64,000 bases of DNA from Candidatus Hydrogenedentota bacterium (GCA_034669905.1 JAXMOL010000014.1:1-64000); one strand, 5' to 3'. Counted from the first letter of the stretch, positions 11,308 to 41,649 are shown. Notes: generated from the letters alone by a model not told the origin. A program made the numbers and translations.

Positions 11308-12540
11308 TCACCCGCCGTAGACCTTTCCCCAGACGATGGTCAGGGTGCGAATCGCCAGGCCCAGCAGGATAATCAGGCCCACAGCCCCCAGGACATTGCT
11401 CATGACCTTATTCCGCAGGTCGCCCATCAACGCACGGTTGTTGGCGAAGTAATAGAGCAAGAGCGCGCACAGGGGCGACGCAATAATGGTGGACGTCTGG
11501 GCAATCAGCACACTCTGTGAGCCACCCACACCGGCCTGCATGGTGGCAATCGCCACGCCGCAGCCAATCAACAGTGCAGCCGCCGCACAAACACGTGTGG
11601 GCGTCTTCTCCATCGTCGGGTCCAGCCCCAGTCCGTCGGCAAGCAGGGTGCCACCAATCAAGGCATTCGCGATAAAGGAAGAGAAGGCCGCCGCACACAA
11701 GCCCAGCCCGAAGACCAGGCCCGCCGAATCACCCAGCACGCTGGTCAGCTGATTGGCGAGTTGCCCGATGTGCTTGAAGTCCCCGCCCGTCTCGTGGAGG
11801 GTCTGGGCCGCACCAATCATGATCACCAGCCCCATGGTGCCCAGGATCCCGATACCAATCCACGCATCCTGAATGGCGTTGTGGAGATTCTCCTTATGCC
11901 AGCCCTTGGCCTGCACCAGGTAGGCCTGGTAAAACGCCGCCACGGCAGAGAAAGTCGTGCCGAGCATGCCCGCCGCAATAATAAACTCGCCCTCGGCAAA
12001 ACGATGGGGAATCAGGCCCGTTGCCAGGCCCACCGGACTCACGCCCGTGAAAACCAGGTTGCCGATGAAGGCCACCAGCATAATCCCCACGAAGAATCGC
12101 ATCACCAACTCGAGCAGGTGGTAGACGTTTTTCGCCATCAGCATGAAAACCAGCGAAAGTCCGGTAAACACCAGGGGCCAAATCCACGCCGGCACACCGG
12201 GCACAATGCCCTCCAGTGCATAGGCCACGCCGAGATTATTGCCAAACTGAAATCCTGCCGCCACAAAGAAGGCCGAAAAACCCGTGACTGCCGCAATGGG
12301 ACGACCCCAGCGCTTGGACAGAAATTGCAGAAAGGACTCTTCCAAGGCGCAGCCAATGCGGGCGCCCATGGACGTGAAGACCGCCATGACCACACAGGCC
12401 AGGGCGAGCATCCACACAAGGCCGTAGCCTGCATCCGCCCCGGCCCGACTGGACGAAACGATGCTTCCCGGACCCAACACCACCGCCGCCGTAATCAGCC
12501 CCGGTCCTACACGTTCATACCAACGTCGCTTTTCACTCAT
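11308..12540 (-). CDS. NRAMP-family (YcsG-like) transporter
   Basis: 'GPGLITAAVVLGPGS', 'FQFGNNLG', 'GTTFS', about 11 TMs. Confidence 0.82.
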   Translation of the reverse strand: MSEKRRWYERVGPGLITAAVVLGPGSIVSSSRAGADAGYGLVWMLALACVVMAVFTSMGARIGCALEESFLQFLSKRWGRPIAAVTGFSAFFVAAGFQFGNNLGVAYALEGIVPGVPAWIWPLVFTGLSLVFMLMAKNVYHLLELVMRFFVGIMLVAFIGNLVFTGVSPVGLATGLIPHRFAEGEFIIAAGMLGTTFSAVAAFYQAYLVQAKGWHKENLHNAIQDAWIGIGILGTMGLVIMIGAAQTLHETGGDFKHIGQLANQLTSVLGDSAGLVFGLGLCAAAFSSFIANALIGGTLLADGLGLDPTMEKTPTRVCAAAALLIGCGVAIATMQAGVGGSQSVLIAQTSTIIASPLCALLLYYFANNRALMGDLRNKVMSNVLGAVGLIILLGLAIRTLTIVWGKVYGG

Positions 12541-14687: not shown

Positions 14688-14812
14688 AGTCAGATAAATT
14701 CCTCTTTGAACGCGTTGTCACCAAAAGGTGTCGGTGTAAACCCGACCATCATGCCATATCGCACGCCATGATTTCCGCCAAGCCCGATTGGCACCGTGCA
14801 TCCCCCCCCCAC

Positions 14813-14945
14813 TCCACCCTCCACCCTCCACCCGTCACCCTCCACCCGTCACCCTCCACCCTTCACCCTTCACCCTTCACCCTTCACCCTTCACCCTTCA
14901 CCCTTCACCCTTCACCCTTCACCCTTCACCCTTCACCCTTCACCC
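14813..14945. repeat. Heptanucleotide microsatellite, 19 units (7 TCCACCC/GTCACCC + 12 TTCACCC)
   Basis: Counted directly. Intergenic between the divergent epimerase and pilT genes; preceded by a C9 run at 14802-14810. Confidence 0.95.
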
Positions 14946-15078
14946 TTCCTCGTCATCTGCGAATACTGAGACCTTGTCAATAGACTTGTTTTCCCGCAGG
15001 ACCCATGATAACCTGATAGCGTCTAATTTATGGGACCGCCGATTGACCCGCGCACGTCGTGCGCGAGGAGGATATGTG

Positions 15079-16167
15079 ATGGCTGAAATTGATAAGTATT
15101 TCCGGTTGATGGTCGAACACGGAACCTCGGATTTACACCTGTGTACCGGATGTAAACCCATGTTTCGAAAAGACGGCTCTATCGTCCCCCTGAAAGCCGA
15201 CGAAGAACTGACGTCGGAGCGGGCCGAAAAACTTCTCTTTGAGATCACGCCGGAAAAAAACCTCCAGGAGTTCAAGGACAGTCACGACACCGACTTTGCC
15301 TATGAACTGGAGGGCGCGGGCCGCTATCGTGCCAACATCTTCCGCGACCACAAAGGTGTGGGGGGCGTCTTCCGCCTGATCCCCTCGGAAATCCTGACCT
15401 TTGAGCAGTTAAACCTACCCCTCGCGCTCAAAAAGTTTTGTCAGCTGCATAAGGGACTCGTCCTCGTGACCGGTCCGACGGGTAGTGGTAAGTCGACCAC
15501 CCTCGCCGCCATGATCGACTACATCAATAAGAATCGCTCGGATCACATCATCACCATCGAAGATCCCATCGAATTCGTGCACCCCAACCACCGTTGCCTC
15601 ATCAACCAGCGGGAAGTCCACACCCACACCCTGGGCTTCAAGAACGCCCTGCGCGCCGCCCTGCGTGAAGACCCCGATATTGTATTGGTCGGTGAGATGC
15701 GCGATCTCGAAACCACCCACATCGCTATCGAAACGGCGGAGACCGGCCACCTGGTCTTCGGTACCCTCCACACCACGACCGCCATCTCGACCGTTGACCG
15801 CCTGATTGACCAGTTCCCTTCGGGACAGCAAAGTCAGATTCGGACCATGCTCTCCGGCGCCCTCAAGGGGGTCGTCGCGCAGAACCTCATCAAGAAAAAG
15901 GGCGGCGGTCGCGTCGCGGCTCTGGAAGTCCTGGTGGTCAACGCCGCCGTGGCCATGCTGATTCGCGAAGGCAAGACCGCCCAGGTCATGAGCATCATGC
16001 AAACGGCCAAGAAAGAGGGCATGACCCTGCTCAACGAAGAACTGGCGCGCTTCGTGAAGGAAGATGTGATAGAAGCCAGTGAGGCCTATTCCAAGGCCGT
16101 CGACAAAGAAGGCATCATCAAGGCCCTCGACGGACACGGCATCAAATTTAGTCCGGCGGCCGACTGA
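15079..16167 (+). CDS. pilT: Type IV pilus retraction ATPase PilT family
   Basis: 'SDLHL', Walker A GPTGSGKST, 'TIEDPIE', 'ALREDPD', 'GEMRD', 'AETGHLVFGTLHT'; GGAGG RBS before 15079. Confidence 0.93.
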   Translation: MAEIDKYFRLMVEHGTSDLHLCTGCKPMFRKDGSIVPLKADEELTSERAEKLLFEITPEKNLQEFKDSHDTDFAYELEGAGRYRANIFRDHKGVGGVFRLIPSEILTFEQLNLPLALKKFCQLHKGLVLVTGPTGSGKSTTLAAMIDYINKNRSDHIITIEDPIEFVHPNHRCLINQREVHTHTLGFKNALRAALREDPDIVLVGEMRDLETTHIAIETAETGHLVFGTLHTTTAISTVDRLIDQFPSGQQSQIRTMLSGALKGVVAQNLIKKKGGGRVAALEVLVVNAAVAMLIREGKTAQVMSIMQTAKKEGMTLLNEELARFVKEDVIEASEAYSKAVDKEGIIKALDGHGIKFSPAAD

Positions 16168-31814: not shown

Positions 31815-32738
31815 TCAGCCCCCGAAGGTCCACTTGTAGGTCAAGCCCAGGACAAAGGTCACCTGGTCACGCGAGCCGCCGGGACCTTCTACGATGGGGC
31901 TGTCTGCCGCGTCGCCCACAAGACGGCTATACCGCATGGCCGCCAACAGTCCAACCCGATCGGTGAAGTCGTGGTCGAAGCGCATCCCGACGAAGCCATC
32001 TTTGAATCCGGCGTCGGCGGCATAGGGACGATAGATGCTCCGCCAGGCCTCCCGGTGATCCACGCTGAAAAAGGCATCCATATAGTCGTCATCGGCCCAG
32101 GTGGTGCCCACTTCCATCCCCAGCCGCGTGCGGGGGGTAAAGGGTATACGTGTGCCCAGACTGAGCTTCGCGGTGAAACCCTCGTGTCCCCCGGCCACTT
32201 CCTGGCGCAAGACCAACTGAGTCGCCACCGGTCCGGTACGAAGAAAGAAATTGGCTCCGACATCCAGACCGACATCCACATCGGAAAGTCCGCGAAGATA
32301 CTTATTGTTGTCCCGGGTCGAAAAGAGGGAATCGCTGTCTCCCTTGCGCGATGCCGAAGGACTGATGGCCGGCTCCAGCCGGAATTCCACCTTCTTAAAC
32401 GGACTCTCCGCATCGTTTTCGAACTGGAGTAAGGTGTAGGAAAGCCCACGGAAGGAGAGATTGAACTTGTGCCAGTTGTTGATTTCAATGACCGGCAGGG
32501 GTGTAAACCCATAGTCCTTCGACCCTTCAAAATCCGGGGAAACAAGAAAACCTGCACCCAGACGAAGCGTGGTGGCATCGCCCGCGTCGGGAACCGCCGC
32601 CTCGGCGGCAATGGGTGCTTCAGGAGCTTCCTCCGTTGCCGCGGGGGAGTCTTGCGCCATAGCCCCTGGCGCACCAAATACGACCGCTGCGAGCAATACA
32701 CTGCCCGGCACCATCCTGTGGAGAATTTGAAAACCCAT
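31815..32738 (-). CDS. MipA/OmpV-family outer-membrane protein
   Basis: Signal peptide; 'PDFEGSKDY', 'WADDDYMDAFFSV', 'RLVGDAADSPIV'; aromatic C-terminal strand. Confidence 0.85.
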   Translation of the reverse strand: MGFQILHRMVPGSVLLAAVVFGAPGAMAQDSPAATEEAPEAPIAAEAAVPDAGDATTLRLGAGFLVSPDFEGSKDYGFTPLPVIEINNWHKFNLSFRGLSYTLLQFENDAESPFKKVEFRLEPAISPSASRKGDSDSLFSTRDNNKYLRGLSDVDVGLDVGANFFLRTGPVATQLVLRQEVAGGHEGFTAKLSLGTRIPFTPRTRLGMEVGTTWADDDYMDAFFSVDHREAWRSIYRPYAADAGFKDGFVGMRFDHDFTDRVGLLAAMRYSRLVGDAADSPIVEGPGGSRDQVTFVLGLTYKWTFGG

Positions 32739-32782: not shown

Positions 32783-32811
32783 AGTATAGACCGACCGGTA
32801 AGCACTGTCAA
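32783..32811 (-). promoter_or_regulatory. sigma70 promoter of the mipA-like gene
   Basis: TTGACA-17 bp-TATACT on the - strand. Confidence 0.75.
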
Positions 32812-32842: not shown

Positions 32843-33013
32843 TTAGGCACGGGCGAGGAGATGGCGAAAAACCAACACGCTGGGCACCAGCAGAAGAATC
32901 GCCGCAATCCCATCCGCCATGCCGTCTGCCAGCAGGCCCAGGGTGATCGCAAAAGCAATGACGACGGCACAGGTCCAGGGACCGGGCGCAAATTTCCCAG
33001 GGGATTTAGTCAT
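32843..33013 (-). CDS. Small two-TM protein (56 aa) coupled to the PepSY-TM gene
   Basis: MTKSPGK...PW...GLLADGMADG...; its ATG overlaps the end of the PepSY gene; hydrophobic helical hairpin. Confidence 0.65.
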   Translation of the reverse strand: MTKSPGKFAPGPWTCAVVIAFAITLGLLADGMADGIAAILLLVPSVLVFRHLLARA

Positions 33014-34268
33014 GGAGCATCTCTCGTGCGGCGAGGGTTTCCGACACCGGATCGGGCGCGACGGCGGCCGCTGCCTGCGCCTTCCGCTGACGGGCACGCC
33101 GCCATTTGATGAAATACATGAGGTAGCCACTAATCGAAAGAAAACCGGATGATAGCCCAAGCAAGAGATACGCAAAATAGACGGGCTTCCCGCCAAAGGC
33201 GCCGGTGTGCAAGGGTGCCCCCAACAGGATGGCTTCCATCCACCAGGTAAGCGCATACACCTGCGGACGGGGTGTGGCTTCGGCGGTCACAATACCAATC
33301 TCCGGCACCAGGCCGTGTTCGAAGGGGTCGGGCTCGGCAAAAAAAGTAAAGACCTTGTCGCCCTGGATGGCATCGGGGCCGGGGTATTCGAGCCGAATCA
33401 CGGTGTGGTCTGGAAATACCGATTGGGCGTGACGGTAGATGACATCAATGTTGGGCGGCGGTGTCACCGGTACGATTTCACCCACCTGGGATTCGATGGC
33501 CTTCAAATCCTCCCGGACCTGAATCTGAATGGCGAAAAGCCCCAGGGTCAGGCCAATGCCGGTGACGGCCATCATCAGGTTAAAGGCGAGGGCGGCCATC
33601 CCGATGAGCTTGTGCATATCCGCCCAGCGAATGGGCGTCGCCCGCTTCCAGCGGATGGCCCCAAAGACCAGTCCCTTCATGAAGGGCGCATAAATAATCC
33701 AACCGGTGACCGTGGAAATCAGAAAAATTACGCCGCCGATACCCGTCAGCAAGGTGCCTACCAGCCCCAGGGCGAGGTTGGTGTGCAAACTCAGCATCAA
33801 CGCCGCCACGCGTTGGTAACGGGGCAGGGGCGCATCAACGGCGGCCGACTCCGCCGTGGCAACTACCCCTTCGCCCACAGGGGGAATCCCTTCGGGAAGC
33901 GTCCCCCGTATCAAACTCAGGGCACCGGTGTAGGGCTCCACGGCAAAGCGCAGATGGGTGTGGGAATCCACCAGTTCCACCCGCAGCTCATGAAGATCCC
34001 CCTCCGCCAGCGCATAGGTCACCCGCTCCACGACCAGCTCGTGGCCCGAAAAGTGGCGTGCCAGGCCGTCGATGATGGGCTGCACCGGCAAGACCCGCTC
34101 CCCATCAATCGGCACCGCGTTCCCCACCTCGTGGGCCTCCGACGCCACCAACTCCACGCTCAGCAGATAGGTGGCCGTCACGCTGAATAACAACACATGG
34201 AGACCGATCACAAGACCGGTCCATTTGTGGATAGCATAAAGCAGACGTGTTCGGCGTACTCGATTCAT
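33006..34268 (-). CDS. PepSY-associated TM helix protein (iron-regulated membrane protein, FoxB-like)
   Basis: TM histidines in 'IHKWTGL', 'LHTNL', 'DMHKLIG', 'PLHTG'; 'VEPYTG'. Likely start MNRVRR at 34268. Confidence 0.87.
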   Translation of the reverse strand: MNRVRRTRLLYAIHKWTGLVIGLHVLLFSVTATYLLSVELVASEAHEVGNAVPIDGERVLPVQPIIDGLARHFSGHELVVERVTYALAEGDLHELRVELVDSHTHLRFAVEPYTGALSLIRGTLPEGIPPVGEGVVATAESAAVDAPLPRYQRVAALMLSLHTNLALGLVGTLLTGIGGVIFLISTVTGWIIYAPFMKGLVFGAIRWKRATPIRWADMHKLIGMAALAFNLMMAVTGIGLTLGLFAIQIQVREDLKAIESQVGEIVPVTPPPNIDVIYRHAQSVFPDHTVIRLEYPGPDAIQGDKVFTFFAEPDPFEHGLVPEIGIVTAEATPRPQVYALTWWMEAILLGAPLHTGAFGGKPVYFAYLLLGLSSGFLSISGYLMYFIKWRRARQRKAQAAAAVAPDPVSETLAAREMLHD

Positions 34269-34288
34269 GGTCGTAATGGGTCCTGGCG

Positions 34289-34333
34289 AAAAAAAGGGAG
34301 TGCTGGTGGGATGGTGTGTGTCATCCCACCAGC
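34289..34333 (-). terminator. Hairpin or leaky terminator between the DUF1559 and PepSY genes
   Basis: 12-bp stem GCTGGTGGGATG/CATCCCACCAGC with a U7 tract 6 nt downstream on the - strand. Confidence 0.6.
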
Positions 34334-34365
34334 GAAAGACCGGAACGGGAGCAGGGTGTGCCGGC

Positions 34366-35343
34366 CTAGAAGAGGGTGTAGATGCCGATGAGGGTGCCAC
34401 TCGTGCCGTTGAGGGGCTGCTCACCCGTGGCGCTGTATTTCAGGAATTCCACGTGCCCGTCCATGTAGAGCACGTTGGACCCACCGGGAATGTGGTTGTA
34501 GGCCGACGGGTGAATGGAGATGGCGTCGAACATGACGTACACATTGCTCTGGGCCTTCGCGCTGCCTGCCGGATTATTGATATCCGTAATCAGGAAACGC
34601 TCCACGCCTTCACGAAGGCGGAGAATAGTGTCCCCACCACCATTGCCATGGCCCGGCGCACTGGAAGAAAGGTCGATGTCTTCCGACATGGCCGCCATGG
34701 GCGCATCGGTCGGGTGATCGGTCGGACTTCCCACGAGACTCAGGTAGCCCGCGAAGAAATGGTCCATCATCCAGCCCCACTGGACCGGCACCTCGGCCGT
34801 CGTATCGGCGCCGTAAAGGGTGGCCACATAATTCAGCGTCGGGGCGCTGCTGATGGCCATAAGCGGGTCATCGGCCTCGTTGCGGTCCAGCAACCAGCCA
34901 AAATACTGGTAGCTCGAATCCACCCCACGGCCACATTCCCGGAAACCGCCACCGCCATAGCCCAGGCACCACGCTCCGGTGTCATCCTTCATGCCTTCTT
35001 CCGCGCTCGAAAAATCCGCCGTGGAGGGACAGAGCAGGACACCGGGGTCGGTGAGATATTCGGGGTAAATCAGGGTGGGGTACGGCCCGGCATCCAGTAC
35101 CGCGCCCGCCGTGCCATCCGCCTTGGGGAGGTAGCCCAGGGCCACTTCCGGAAAGGTCTCCCCACGGGATTCGTTGGCATACATCTTCAAGACGACGCCC
35201 ATCTGCTTGAGATTGTTCTGGCAGCTCGTGCGCCGGGCAGCTTCACGGGCCCGGGCCAAGGCCGGCAGGAGAATGGCCGCAAGAATGCCGATAATGGCAA
35301 TAACGACCAGTAATTCGATAAGGGTAAAGCCCTTGCACTTCAT
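34366..35343 (-). CDS. DUF1559 prepilin-type N-methylation protein with an H-X9-DG C-terminal motif
   Basis: '[44 protein letters not shown]' and '[16 protein letters not shown]'. Confidence 0.93.
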
Positions 35344-35368
35344 AGTTACGTCCTTTTTGTAAAACCAA

Positions 35369-35386
35369 TGTTTAGTGATCTAAACA
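35369..35386. promoter_or_regulatory. Palindromic operator candidate TGTTTAG-N4-CTAAACA
   Basis: Perfect 7-4-7 inverted repeat in an AT-rich patch between the predicted -10 and the RBS of the DUF1559 gene. Confidence 0.6.
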
Positions 35387-35396
35387 ATAGGACGAA

Positions 35397-35426
35397 ATAC
35401 TATCACTTACTCTGCGCACAATGCAA
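35397..35426 (-). promoter_or_regulatory. sigma70 promoter of the DUF1559-PepSY unit
   Basis: TTGCAT-18 bp-TAGTAT with an extended TG, on the - strand. Confidence 0.6.
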
Positions 35427-35497: not shown

Positions 35498-35529
35498 ACA
35501 AAACCCCGTGTCCTGGGGGACACGGGGTT
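35498..35529 (-). terminator. Terminator after the vWA-OmpA gene
   Basis: AACCCCGTGTCC/GGACACGGGGTT stem with a T-rich tail on the - strand. Confidence 0.7.
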
Positions 35530-35559
35530 CTGACTGGATTGGCGGATTGGGTCGACGCG

Positions 35560-37492: not shown

Positions 37493-38359
37493 TCACCACG
37501 CGATGGGTTCGGGAAAATACTTTCCGATGAGTTCCTCATAATAGGGACGCAATTCTGCAACATTCGGGGGGGCATCACTCTTGGTGTAAAGATCATAGGG
37601 ATTAAAGGCTTCCACCCAGCGGAACATGGCACGATCGTGGTCATTCATCAGGTGATTATAGGCCTTTTCCCGGTGCGCCGCATAGAAGGAATGGTAGCGA
37701 ATCATATAGAGCGATTCTTCGGGCATGTAGTCTTTCACCACCTGATAGAGATACTCATCGTGCCCCCAGGACAGGTGCACGTTGTCCAGCCCGGTGCCTT
37801 CTTCGTAGATCCCACACAAGGTGGAGAGCTCGGGACGCTGGGTGTCGGGATTGGCCGCGAAAAATTCGGGATAAACGATCTTGTCGGAGAAGGCACAACC
37901 CACCGGAAAGGTATCGCCCACGACGGCCCACTGGGCTTCGCCGTAGAGACACAAGACCTTGCCCAGATCGTGGATCAGTCCGGTGAGAATGAACCAGTCC
38001 GGGTGACCGTCTTTGCGAATGCCCTCTGCCGTCTGCATGAGATGCTGAATCTGGGACAGGTCCGTATCGGGATCGCTGTCATCCACCAGGGTGTCCAGGT
38101 ATTCCATGGCTTCCCAGATGGTCATGGTGCCATGCTGTCCCGGCGCAAATTGGGCCTTCTTCTCCTGGACCAGTGCCAGGGTCTGGCCTTCGTGATTGAT
38201 GCGATAGAATTCACGCACCGTATCCCGGCCGGGCTCATCGTAGTTCCGGAAGGACGCTTTCTCTTTCCCGTTGGGATCGTAATCCGTCTCGGGGTAGCGC
38301 CGTTTCAGGTCGTCTTCCCAGGCTTCTTCCAGCTCATGATCGTAGGCAGTGTCACTCAT
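37493..38359 (-). CDS. myo-Inositol oxygenase (MIOX) family
   Basis: 'FRNY', 'VDDSDPD', 'HLMQTAE', 'HDLGK', '[13 protein letters not shown]', 'SWGHDEY', 'IRYHSFY', 'FNPYDLYTK'. GGAG RBS before 38359. Confidence 0.93.
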
Positions 38360-38461
38360 CGGGCTTCTCTCCAGTTGGTCTCCTATTCTACCACCAAAGT
38401 TCATTCATCGGGCTAGCGAAATTGTTTCCATTTCATGATGACCAGCCCACCCATCAAACTG

Positions 38462-40680: not shown

Positions 40681-41649
40681 CTACCCCAGCCCCGCCAATG
40701 CTATCCCGCCCAAACCCACAATAGCCAGCGGCTCAATCAATCCAATCAGCAATCGCAGCCGAAAGAGGGCCTCGTCATAGAGCCCCCGGGACAGGTGCTC
40801 GAAACTATCATCGAGCTTTCCCGTAATCTCCCCGGTTTGAATGTAGGCCCGTGCTCCTTTCGGCAAGAACTTCGCCTCTGCCAGGGCCTCTTCCAGGCTG
40901 TGCCCCTCTCTCAGCAGCGGTGCCAGCCGCTCAAAATCTCCCGCGATACGTCGGGTACCTGTCACCTGCCCCGAAAGCCGCACCGCATGGTCGAGGGGCA
41001 GCCCCGTCCGTGTAAAAACCATCATGGCCCAGGCGAAACGGGAAATGAGGATGCGTCGCACGATTCCCGCAAAGGGCCAGGCATACATGAGCAGCGATTC
41101 GCGGGATACAAAGCGGAAGGTGACGCGGGCCACCACCACAATGGTCAGAAAGGTGCCGCCCACGTGAAGGCCGAAGTTTCGGAGTATCCAATAGAGTTGG
41201 GCTTCGAAGGGTGCCTCCGCAACACCCGCCACATCGGCCAGGAATGCCTGCAAGATGGGAATGCCGACGATGATGGCAAAGAACACGGCCGCCGGATAGG
41301 CCACCTGCCGAATCACGCCGTTATAGAGCCCACGGAGATCCTCATAGTAGTGCGTGAGTTGGGGCAAGATGGTGCCCAGGGCACCCGACTGCTCCCCGAT
41401 GGCGATTAGCTGCACAAAGAGCGGTGGAAACCGCTTCTGGTGCCAATGAATCGCCTGCGAGAGGGTGGCCCCCTGCAAGATGGACTGGCCCAAATCCCGG
41501 GTCACCGTGCGCAGGGCGTGACTTCCGGTGCTTTCTTCCAGGGCCTTCATGGCGCGCACCATGGGCACGCCGCTGTCGTAGAGGGTTCCCAGCCGGTGGG
41601 CAAAGTGGGCCAGATCACGGGCTGACAAGGTCGATGAAAGCAGGCCCAC
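40681..41649 (-). CDS. Type II secretion F / PilC-family platform protein
   Basis: Two GspF repeats: 'SGVPMVRAM...GATLSQA...GEQSGAL' and 'TGLPL...GEITGKLD...LIEP'; AAGGAG RBS before a GTG start. Confidence 0.88.
   Translation of the reverse strand: MGLLSSTLSARDLAHFAHRLGTLYDSGVPMVRAMKALEESTGSHALRTVTRDLGQSILQGATLSQAIHWHQKRFPPLFVQLIAIGEQSGALGTILPQLTHYYEDLRGLYNGVIRQVAYPAAVFFAIIVGIPILQAFLADVAGVAEAPFEAQLYWILRNFGLHVGGTFLTIVVVARVTFRFVSRESLLMYAWPFAGIVRRILISRFAWAMMVFTRTGLPLDHAVRLSGQVTGTRRIAGDFERLAPLLREGHSLEEALAEAKFLPKGARAYIQTGEITGKLDDSFEHLSRGLYDEALFRLRLLIGLIEPLAIVGLGGIALAGLG

Follow-up and report, generated by a model that had tools for sequence, protein, structure and literature searches.

A DUF1559 prepilin gene in the receptor position of a predicted iron-regulated PepSY operon of Hydrogenedentota

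TonB-dependent transporters (TBDTs) are normally credited with bringing scarce small nutrients actively through the outer membrane, and haem-uptake operons of the hmuTUV/hemS type are headed by a haem TBDT. Among reductive iron-uptake systems the available part of the report on hiuABC from Caulobacter crescentus describes an iron-regulated order of first gene, PepSY gene and small membrane protein, with FeoAB proposed as importer of Fe(II) (PMC13001220). The locus described here has the same three-gene order, and FeoAB takes the same place in the model proposed below. Its first gene is different: in hiuABC it encodes a TBDT under control of Fur, whereas here it is a prepilin gene behind a DtxR-type box in a genome without a TonB match. 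FoxA–FoxB of Pseudomonas aeruginosa (COG3182) offers a second parallel with its four-histidine PepSY_TM protein; according to the part of that preprint at hand a TBDT adjoins each such PepSY operon of P. aeruginosa (bioRxiv 10.1101/2021.01.28.428567), in contrast with none upstream of the 26 PepSY_TM genes read here. The unit thus falls outside the class of TBDT–PepSY operons by its defining receptor, while the small partner after PepSY is present.

Pilins have been connected with nutrition elsewhere. In the accessible text on the type IV-like MUL2 pilus of Akkermansiaceae, pilin-like proteins of a PVC-type bacterium are tied to nutrient acquisition, but by glycan attachment, with other proteins and with neither a paralogue array nor metal regulation (PMC13174399). 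PilA1 of Synechocystis is likewise linked to iron supply, but this major pilin has been proposed to act as a reductant of iron oxides and does not serve a transport operon as its receptor (PMC4144903). Literature searches outside subscription journals and bioRxiv supplements turned up no publication in which a pilin acts as receptor for haem or an iron chelate, and the pairing of a DUF1559 pilin with PepSY was not found described, including in the available parts of PMC2754498 and PMC8567305. The reductase module is already known.

The window, i.e. the whole stretch of DNA that was analysed, comprises 64,000 nucleotides from Candidatus Hydrogenedentota bacterium (GCA_034669905.1, JAXMOL010000014.1:1-64000). 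The unit and its borders consist of the following features:

35499-35532, minus strand: GC-rich hairpin 3' of a vWA-OmpA gene (-34.3 kcal/mol, z -6.8), likely terminator
35426-35421 and 35405-35397, minus strand: predicted promoter identified by eye, -35 element TTGCAT and extended -10 element TG-A-TAGTAT
35369-35386, no strand assigned: operator palindrome (7-4-7), TGTTTAG-N4-CTAAACA, directly 3' of the -10 element and so in a repressor position
34366-35343, minus strand: DUF1559/H-X9-DG prepilin-type gene, 325 aa (profile searches and structure model)
34302-34333, minus strand: intergenic hairpin of 12 bp with a U-run beginning 6 nt further on (fold scan)
33006-34268, minus strand: PepSY_TM (COG3182-type) inner-membrane protein, 420 aa, ATG at 34268 (PF03929, E 9e-35)
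32843-33013, minus strand: 56-aa two-helix membrane ORF (8-nt overlap with the PepSY stop)
32783-32811, minus strand: sigma70-like mipA promoter (11/12 matches), which marks the end of the unit and is not a part of it
31815-32738, minus strand: mipA, following the unit

The initial annotation had described a self-contained minus-strand unit, and every element that it named was recovered. The separate mipA promoter at 32811-32783 is the sole promoter flagged by the scanner between 31500 and 36500; the unit's own promoter scores under the threshold of this scanner, and its TTGCAT and extended -10 elements recur in the relative G007. The hairpin at 35499-35532 is likely a terminator that insulates the pilin–PepSY unit, and it is absent from the list of the terminator scanner. 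The spacer between the pilin and PepSY genes is 111 nt long and gives a fold with z -3.9; its hairpin is present in G007 and G003 too but absent in G011, where the two genes are 6 nt apart. This hairpin is likely a partial terminator or mRNA stabiliser that favours the pilin over the reductase; it could also end most transcripts, which we count against a pilin receptor. No promoter was flagged in the spacer (34270-34365) that would let PepSY be transcribed independently. As had also been noted, pilT (14788-16167, TIGR01420 over the cut-off) and a gspF/pilC-family gene (40681-41649) lie elsewhere in the window. It further holds a divergent Nramp-family transporter gene without the box (11308-12540) and a gene for myo-inositol oxygenase (37493-38404; MIOX, E 3e-110).

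The PepSY protein reaches 121 bits with PF03929 (cut-off 28.8) and is encoded by the only gene of this family in the genome. Four transmembrane histidines had been pointed out in it from the start, and four (H14, H162, H219 and H354) are indeed invariant in all 13 aligned proteins. The family profile matches FoxB (7abw) at E 1.7e-17 with these four histidines aligned to those of FoxB, the H219 column corresponding to H198; the window sequence by itself had no PDB match. Of the four helices expected, three showed up in a simple hydropathy scan. Altogether a di-haem ferric-chelate reductase similar to FoxB and HiuB is predicted. The 56-aa ORF was correctly foreseen as a coupled protein with two transmembrane segments: hydropathy gives two hydrophobic helices, and similar small ORFs stand 3' of PepSY genes in 11 relatives. 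It has no Pfam match and resembles HiuC by position, size and hydropathy only. In G008 (locus L029), a member of the same genus with a one-contig genome, the PepSY gene has shrunk to a remnant.

With its exact sequence the operator palindrome occurs once in the 7.4 Mb genome (35386-35369), and it recurs upstream of related units with the consensus TGTTYAG-N4-CTRAACA. Its register matches the SRE1 site of SloR from S. mutans (PMC12096823, as far as available) and it resembles the TroR motif of Haloferax (PMC10783522, likewise in part), both regulators belonging to the DtxR family. A matrix was trained on nine sites of related units, whose own scores are therefore circular (leave-one-out 13.8–23.8 bits). 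Sites of at least 10 bits were found upstream of 25 of 30 dtxR-feoAB loci, often about 30 nt before the regulator start, against a background of 53 out of 4744 genes in the window genome. Neither the 30 Nramp nor the 19 MntR-type upstream regions contained such a site, and a manganese reading based on the likeness to SloR was dropped. Presence at dtxR-feoAB together with absence at Nramp genes thus speaks for iron rather than manganese.

A DtxR-family regulator is present in 112 of 135 genomes, where it heads a feoA-like gene and feoB (FeoB_N was confirmed by profile, FeoA recognised by eye). It carries cysteine at the position of DtxR C102 and histidine at that of M10, while its best sequence matches are MntR proteins; cysteine at the former position marks Fe(II) sensors according to the accessible part of PMC11672702. 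In the window genome the regulator with a Cys-rich tail heads feoA-feoB at L183:1501-3555 (contig C21). Iron regulation in Hydrogenedentota is likely governed mainly by this protein, with TGTTYAG-N4-CTRAACA as its box. After retraining of the matrix on 14 feo-operon sites, themselves chosen with the first matrix, the C1, C17 and window pilins rank first of 48. A genome-wide motif scan gave no excess (67 matches compared with 61–75 in shuffled sequences), and exact-pattern counts across the phylum were similar to a reversed control, so the box is informative by position only. No box of at least 9 bits was found at the units of G003, G042, G078 and G088 or at two short-PepSY units. The operator is most likely a metal-repressor box for iron, predicted to be the site (35369-35386) of the DtxR-family regulator heading feoAB, and iron repression of the pilin–PepSY unit is predicted in turn. 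That this unit represents an iron-regulated reductive uptake operon appears very probable. Box-like sites occur also at C42:33709, C45:47628 and C26:51776 of the window genome (G000) and at L086, L090, L113 and L121; some may be due to chance. Genes near such sites resemble sdhC, rnfA and alternative complex III by eye or encode PFOR, SOD, a 2Fe-2S ferredoxin and a desaturase by Pfam.

Profile searches found neither TonB_C nor plug nor receptor barrel in the window genome (95.7% complete). Its envelope repertoire includes Omp85/BamA, seven secretin matches, PilT and many PilB/PilT-type ATPases. TonB_C was found in none of the five relatives searched, a one-contig genome included. Throughout the phylum receptor barrels were matched in 43 of 135 genomes with 1–4 copies each, and the other 92 had no barrel match. 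None of eight barrel loci read carries the box, and in all 135 genomes barrel matches and PepSY matches over the cut-off lie on separate contigs. Two of the barrel receptors were tested and belong to the TOL_0244 family, one of them being followed by a YfiR-like gene. The TonB-receptor-like genes at L272, L274-L277 and L279 are of TOL_0244 type, and in most cases a YfiR-like gene and the gene for a sensor protein come next; TonB was not found in the genomes carrying them.

The window pilin matches the N_methyl, DUF1559 and H-X9-DG profiles (TIGR02532, PF07596, TIGR04294), all over their cut-offs, and is one of 55 full-length paralogues among about 6000 crudely called genes (~0.9%) of a genome of 7.44 Mb and 95.7% completeness. 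An even larger number, 91 family copies, is given for Tuwongella in the part of PMC8567305 available. A model built from 136 sequences is confident (pLDDT 92.8, pTM 0.88) and replaces an earlier one from 16 sequences that was unusable (pLDDT 47.7). The pilin fold spans residues 6-311 of this model, and the top 21 fold matches are pilins, the best being EpsG with a modest Z of 5.0 (rmsd 3.2, 95 residues aligned). Since the Z values do not exceed 5.0, the greater part of the head represents an insertion to which no solved structure was matched; the predicted protein is a pilin core into which a large head has been inserted. Structure prediction of the head, proposed earlier as a way to find a ligand pocket, has therefore delivered the pilin core but no solved binding protein as counterpart: Foldseek returned nothing at E 0.001 or better, a two-lobed solute-binding fold (SBP_bac_10 in Pfam) is missing among the fold matches listed, and a search of the Atlas gave clusters from Hydrogenedentota only. 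In this model-based comparison the lack of a match does not prove a new fold, and it counts against a pilin receptor. Among 47 long homologues, 14 join the head domain to an M56 peptidase of BlaR1 type, which fits a role of the head as ligand-binding module in view of the function of BlaR1; none of the 47 is a pilin–PepSY fusion, a point against a pilin receptor. It is probable that the head binds cargo.

The same exchange of receptor for pilin is seen in a haem operon of the window genome (contig C1, L213:3682-8818), where a boxed pilin gene precedes Peripla_BP_2, an FecCD permease, a haem ABC ATPase (over the cut-off) and HemS. Its binding protein, permease, ATPase and HemS correspond to hmuTUV/hemS, from which these operons differ in having a DUF1559 pilin gene at the head in all nine loci. 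Besides the window genome these are the eight other close orthologues of the binding protein (E <1e-80), each with the pilin directly upstream; five of the eight come from one genus, and 60 more genomes with weak matches were mostly left out. The box reaches at least 17 bits in six of the eight, none of which was used for matrix training. Common to the haem-linked pilins are a THWLNP motif and a histidine at the C-terminus, which are candidate ligands and both lacking in the window type. One box is common to the C17 pilin and a DUF4198 gene, and in G003 that pair has hemS, apbE-DUF2271 and a PepSY_TM_like_2 gene as neighbours.

The strongest competing explanation keeps the binding function but abandons the filament: the pilin would be a periplasmic binding protein held in the inner membrane by its prepilin helix, and chelates would enter through porins or by secretin leakage and be concentrated by it for the reductase or the ABC transporter. 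Subunits of ~320 aa with a large head are indeed bulky for a filament, PepSY units without a pilin exist, HiuB/C work whatever the entry route and can use low-affinity, receptor-independent entry (PMC13001220, available part), and Tuwongella proteins carrying both domains were recovered in two detergent-soluble fractions, S2 and S3 (PMC8567305). Against a mere anchor stand the class III signal, Glu5 and the pilin helix, which are nearly invariant in 136 homologues, as well as the pilin fold over residues 6-311; moreover, the haem operon already has a periplasmic binding protein behind its pilin. We regard this explanation as unlikely, though worth serious attention.

Pilin genes also follow other regulatory elements. 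Of the 30 top loci with a cobalamin riboswitch, 5 have a prepilin gene no more than 1.5 kb behind it, and so, after extension, do 7 of 10 further ones (15 were left unextended). Behind the four cobalamin riboswitches of the window genome, one of which lies near a contig end, ORF reading revealed no pilin directly following, and the genome has no TPP riboswitch match. Leader ORFs with CxxC-R[AG]PP precede DUF1559 pilins on C60, C19 and C12 of the window genome (L325-L327); C19, C60 and C43 pilins group as one clade. In Bordetella CruR heads a copper TBDT–PepSY operon (PMC13038864, as far as available). The riboswitch- and leader-linked pilins are consistent with further receptor slots; they agree with the model and do not test it. 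Some secreted proteins behind cobalamin riboswitches (L311:6661-9339, L312:440-2833, L314:6889-9690) have an in-frame hydrophobic anchor followed by an internal prepilin motif and are possibly polyproteins cut by prepilin peptidase, or else reflect an overlapping start. In two genomes a DUF1559 pilin has a beta-propeller phytase directly behind it (L328:2951-5150, L066:9147-11416).

A pilin could also be co-regulated without carrying any cargo, acting during iron starvation as an adhesin or surface variant for iron minerals or haem sources, or in reductive dissolution as proposed for PilA1 (PMC4144903, available part). Boxed pilins with no adjoining transporter in G079, G056, G016, G027, G091 and G009 would suit this explanation, as does the description of MUL2 pili as attachment devices in the accessible text of PMC13174399. 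It is nevertheless quite improbable, considering that the transporter encoded downstream varies with the pilin clade and that pilins occur also behind cobalamin riboswitches and CxxC-R[AG]PP leaders, where soluble cargo is the target.

With so many paralogues in the genome the adjacency of pilin and PepSY genes had to be tested against chance. Within 135 Hydrogenedentota genomes PF03929 matched 25 at 35 places, corresponding to 32 genes after merging of split matches; 26 were read, and six were left out, five as weak matches and one for its position at the start of a contig. A DUF1559 pilin gene is located directly upstream on the same strand of 13 of the 26, in 12 genomes and five families, so the adjacency noted in the initial annotation is conserved in relatives. 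The surveyed kin are not independent, even though their PepSY proteins range widely (190–510 aa). By subfamily the pilin precedes 9 of 14 genes of the window type and 4 of 12 others, and a scan of genomes for the locus gave four close loci. A single clade of PepSY-linked pilins is rejected (AU test, p-AU 3.8e-42), which means that the pairing arose or was swapped repeatedly. An iron-linked clade of 18 rows appeared in one tree and was not recovered in another (p-AU 0.39, not rejected). As a control, none of 79 paralogous metagenome pilins, 57 with at least 600 nt downstream, is followed by PepSY, HmuT, DUF4198 or phytase (positive control 6/6). The pilin is missing upstream of window-type PepSY in 5 of 14 close relatives: in G001, G006 and G027 the box is placed directly on PepSY with no pilin between, in G012 two pilins come 3' of the small partner, and G088 is the fifth. 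As PepSY and the small partner occur without it in these relatives, the pilin is not obligatory. Boxed genes of 180–190 aa without annotation or Pfam match adjoin PepSY units of G012 and G019 (L024:976-1524; L028:4956-5531). That one of 55 mobile paralogues merely landed beside an independently transcribed PepSY gene, as the large family and the strong hairpin might suggest, is largely refuted already and extremely improbable given 13/26 versus ~1% of genes, the several PepSY subfamilies and pilin clades involved, the 6-nt spacing in G011 and a spacer without a flagged promoter.

The placement of a pilin in the TonB-receptor slot, as first proposed, thus stands with regard to recurrent adjacency, absence of TonB receptors, iron box and the same swap in a haem operon, but not as an obligatory arrangement. 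On balance we favour an analogue of hiuABC: a ferric chelate caught by the DUF1559 pilin would go to the PepSY reductase, and FeoAB would import the Fe(II). The DtxR-family regulator heading feoAB would bind the box at plentiful Fe(II) and let go on starvation. The prepilin would then be processed and join a type IV or T2SS-like (pseudo)pilus as one of ~55 interchangeable, substrate-specific subunits; PilB/PilT-type ATPases, GspF/PilC and secretins of the genome constitute assembly machinery, whose link to this pilin we infer. Its inserted head would bind Fe(III) in a siderophore-like complex, which the dynamics of the pilus would then carry through a secretin to the periplasm, where the PepSY protein and its small partner would reduce the iron for import of Fe(II) by FeoAB. 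Carriage of cargo on a retractile filament and its transfer to the reductase are likewise inferred, and passage of the outer membrane by a pilus/secretin route has a little less than an even chance of being right. The paralogous C1 pilin would act in the same way for haem ahead of the HmuTUV-like transporter and HemS.

More tentatively still, DUF1559/H-X9-DG proteins in general might form a library of substrate-specific pilin receptors that replaces TBDTs, so that in Hydrogenedentota, and possibly in further phyla rich in DUF1559, a type IV pilus/secretin system driven by cytoplasmic ATPases would take haem, siderophore iron, copper, cobalamin and other nutrients through the outer membrane. 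The operons name candidate ligands, namely a ferric chelate for the window pilin and haem for its C1 paralogue. If true, a function would be found for the DUF1559 family, which has dozens of copies per genome and no assigned role, and if pilin heads import nutrients they would represent a second route beside TonB-dependent transporters.
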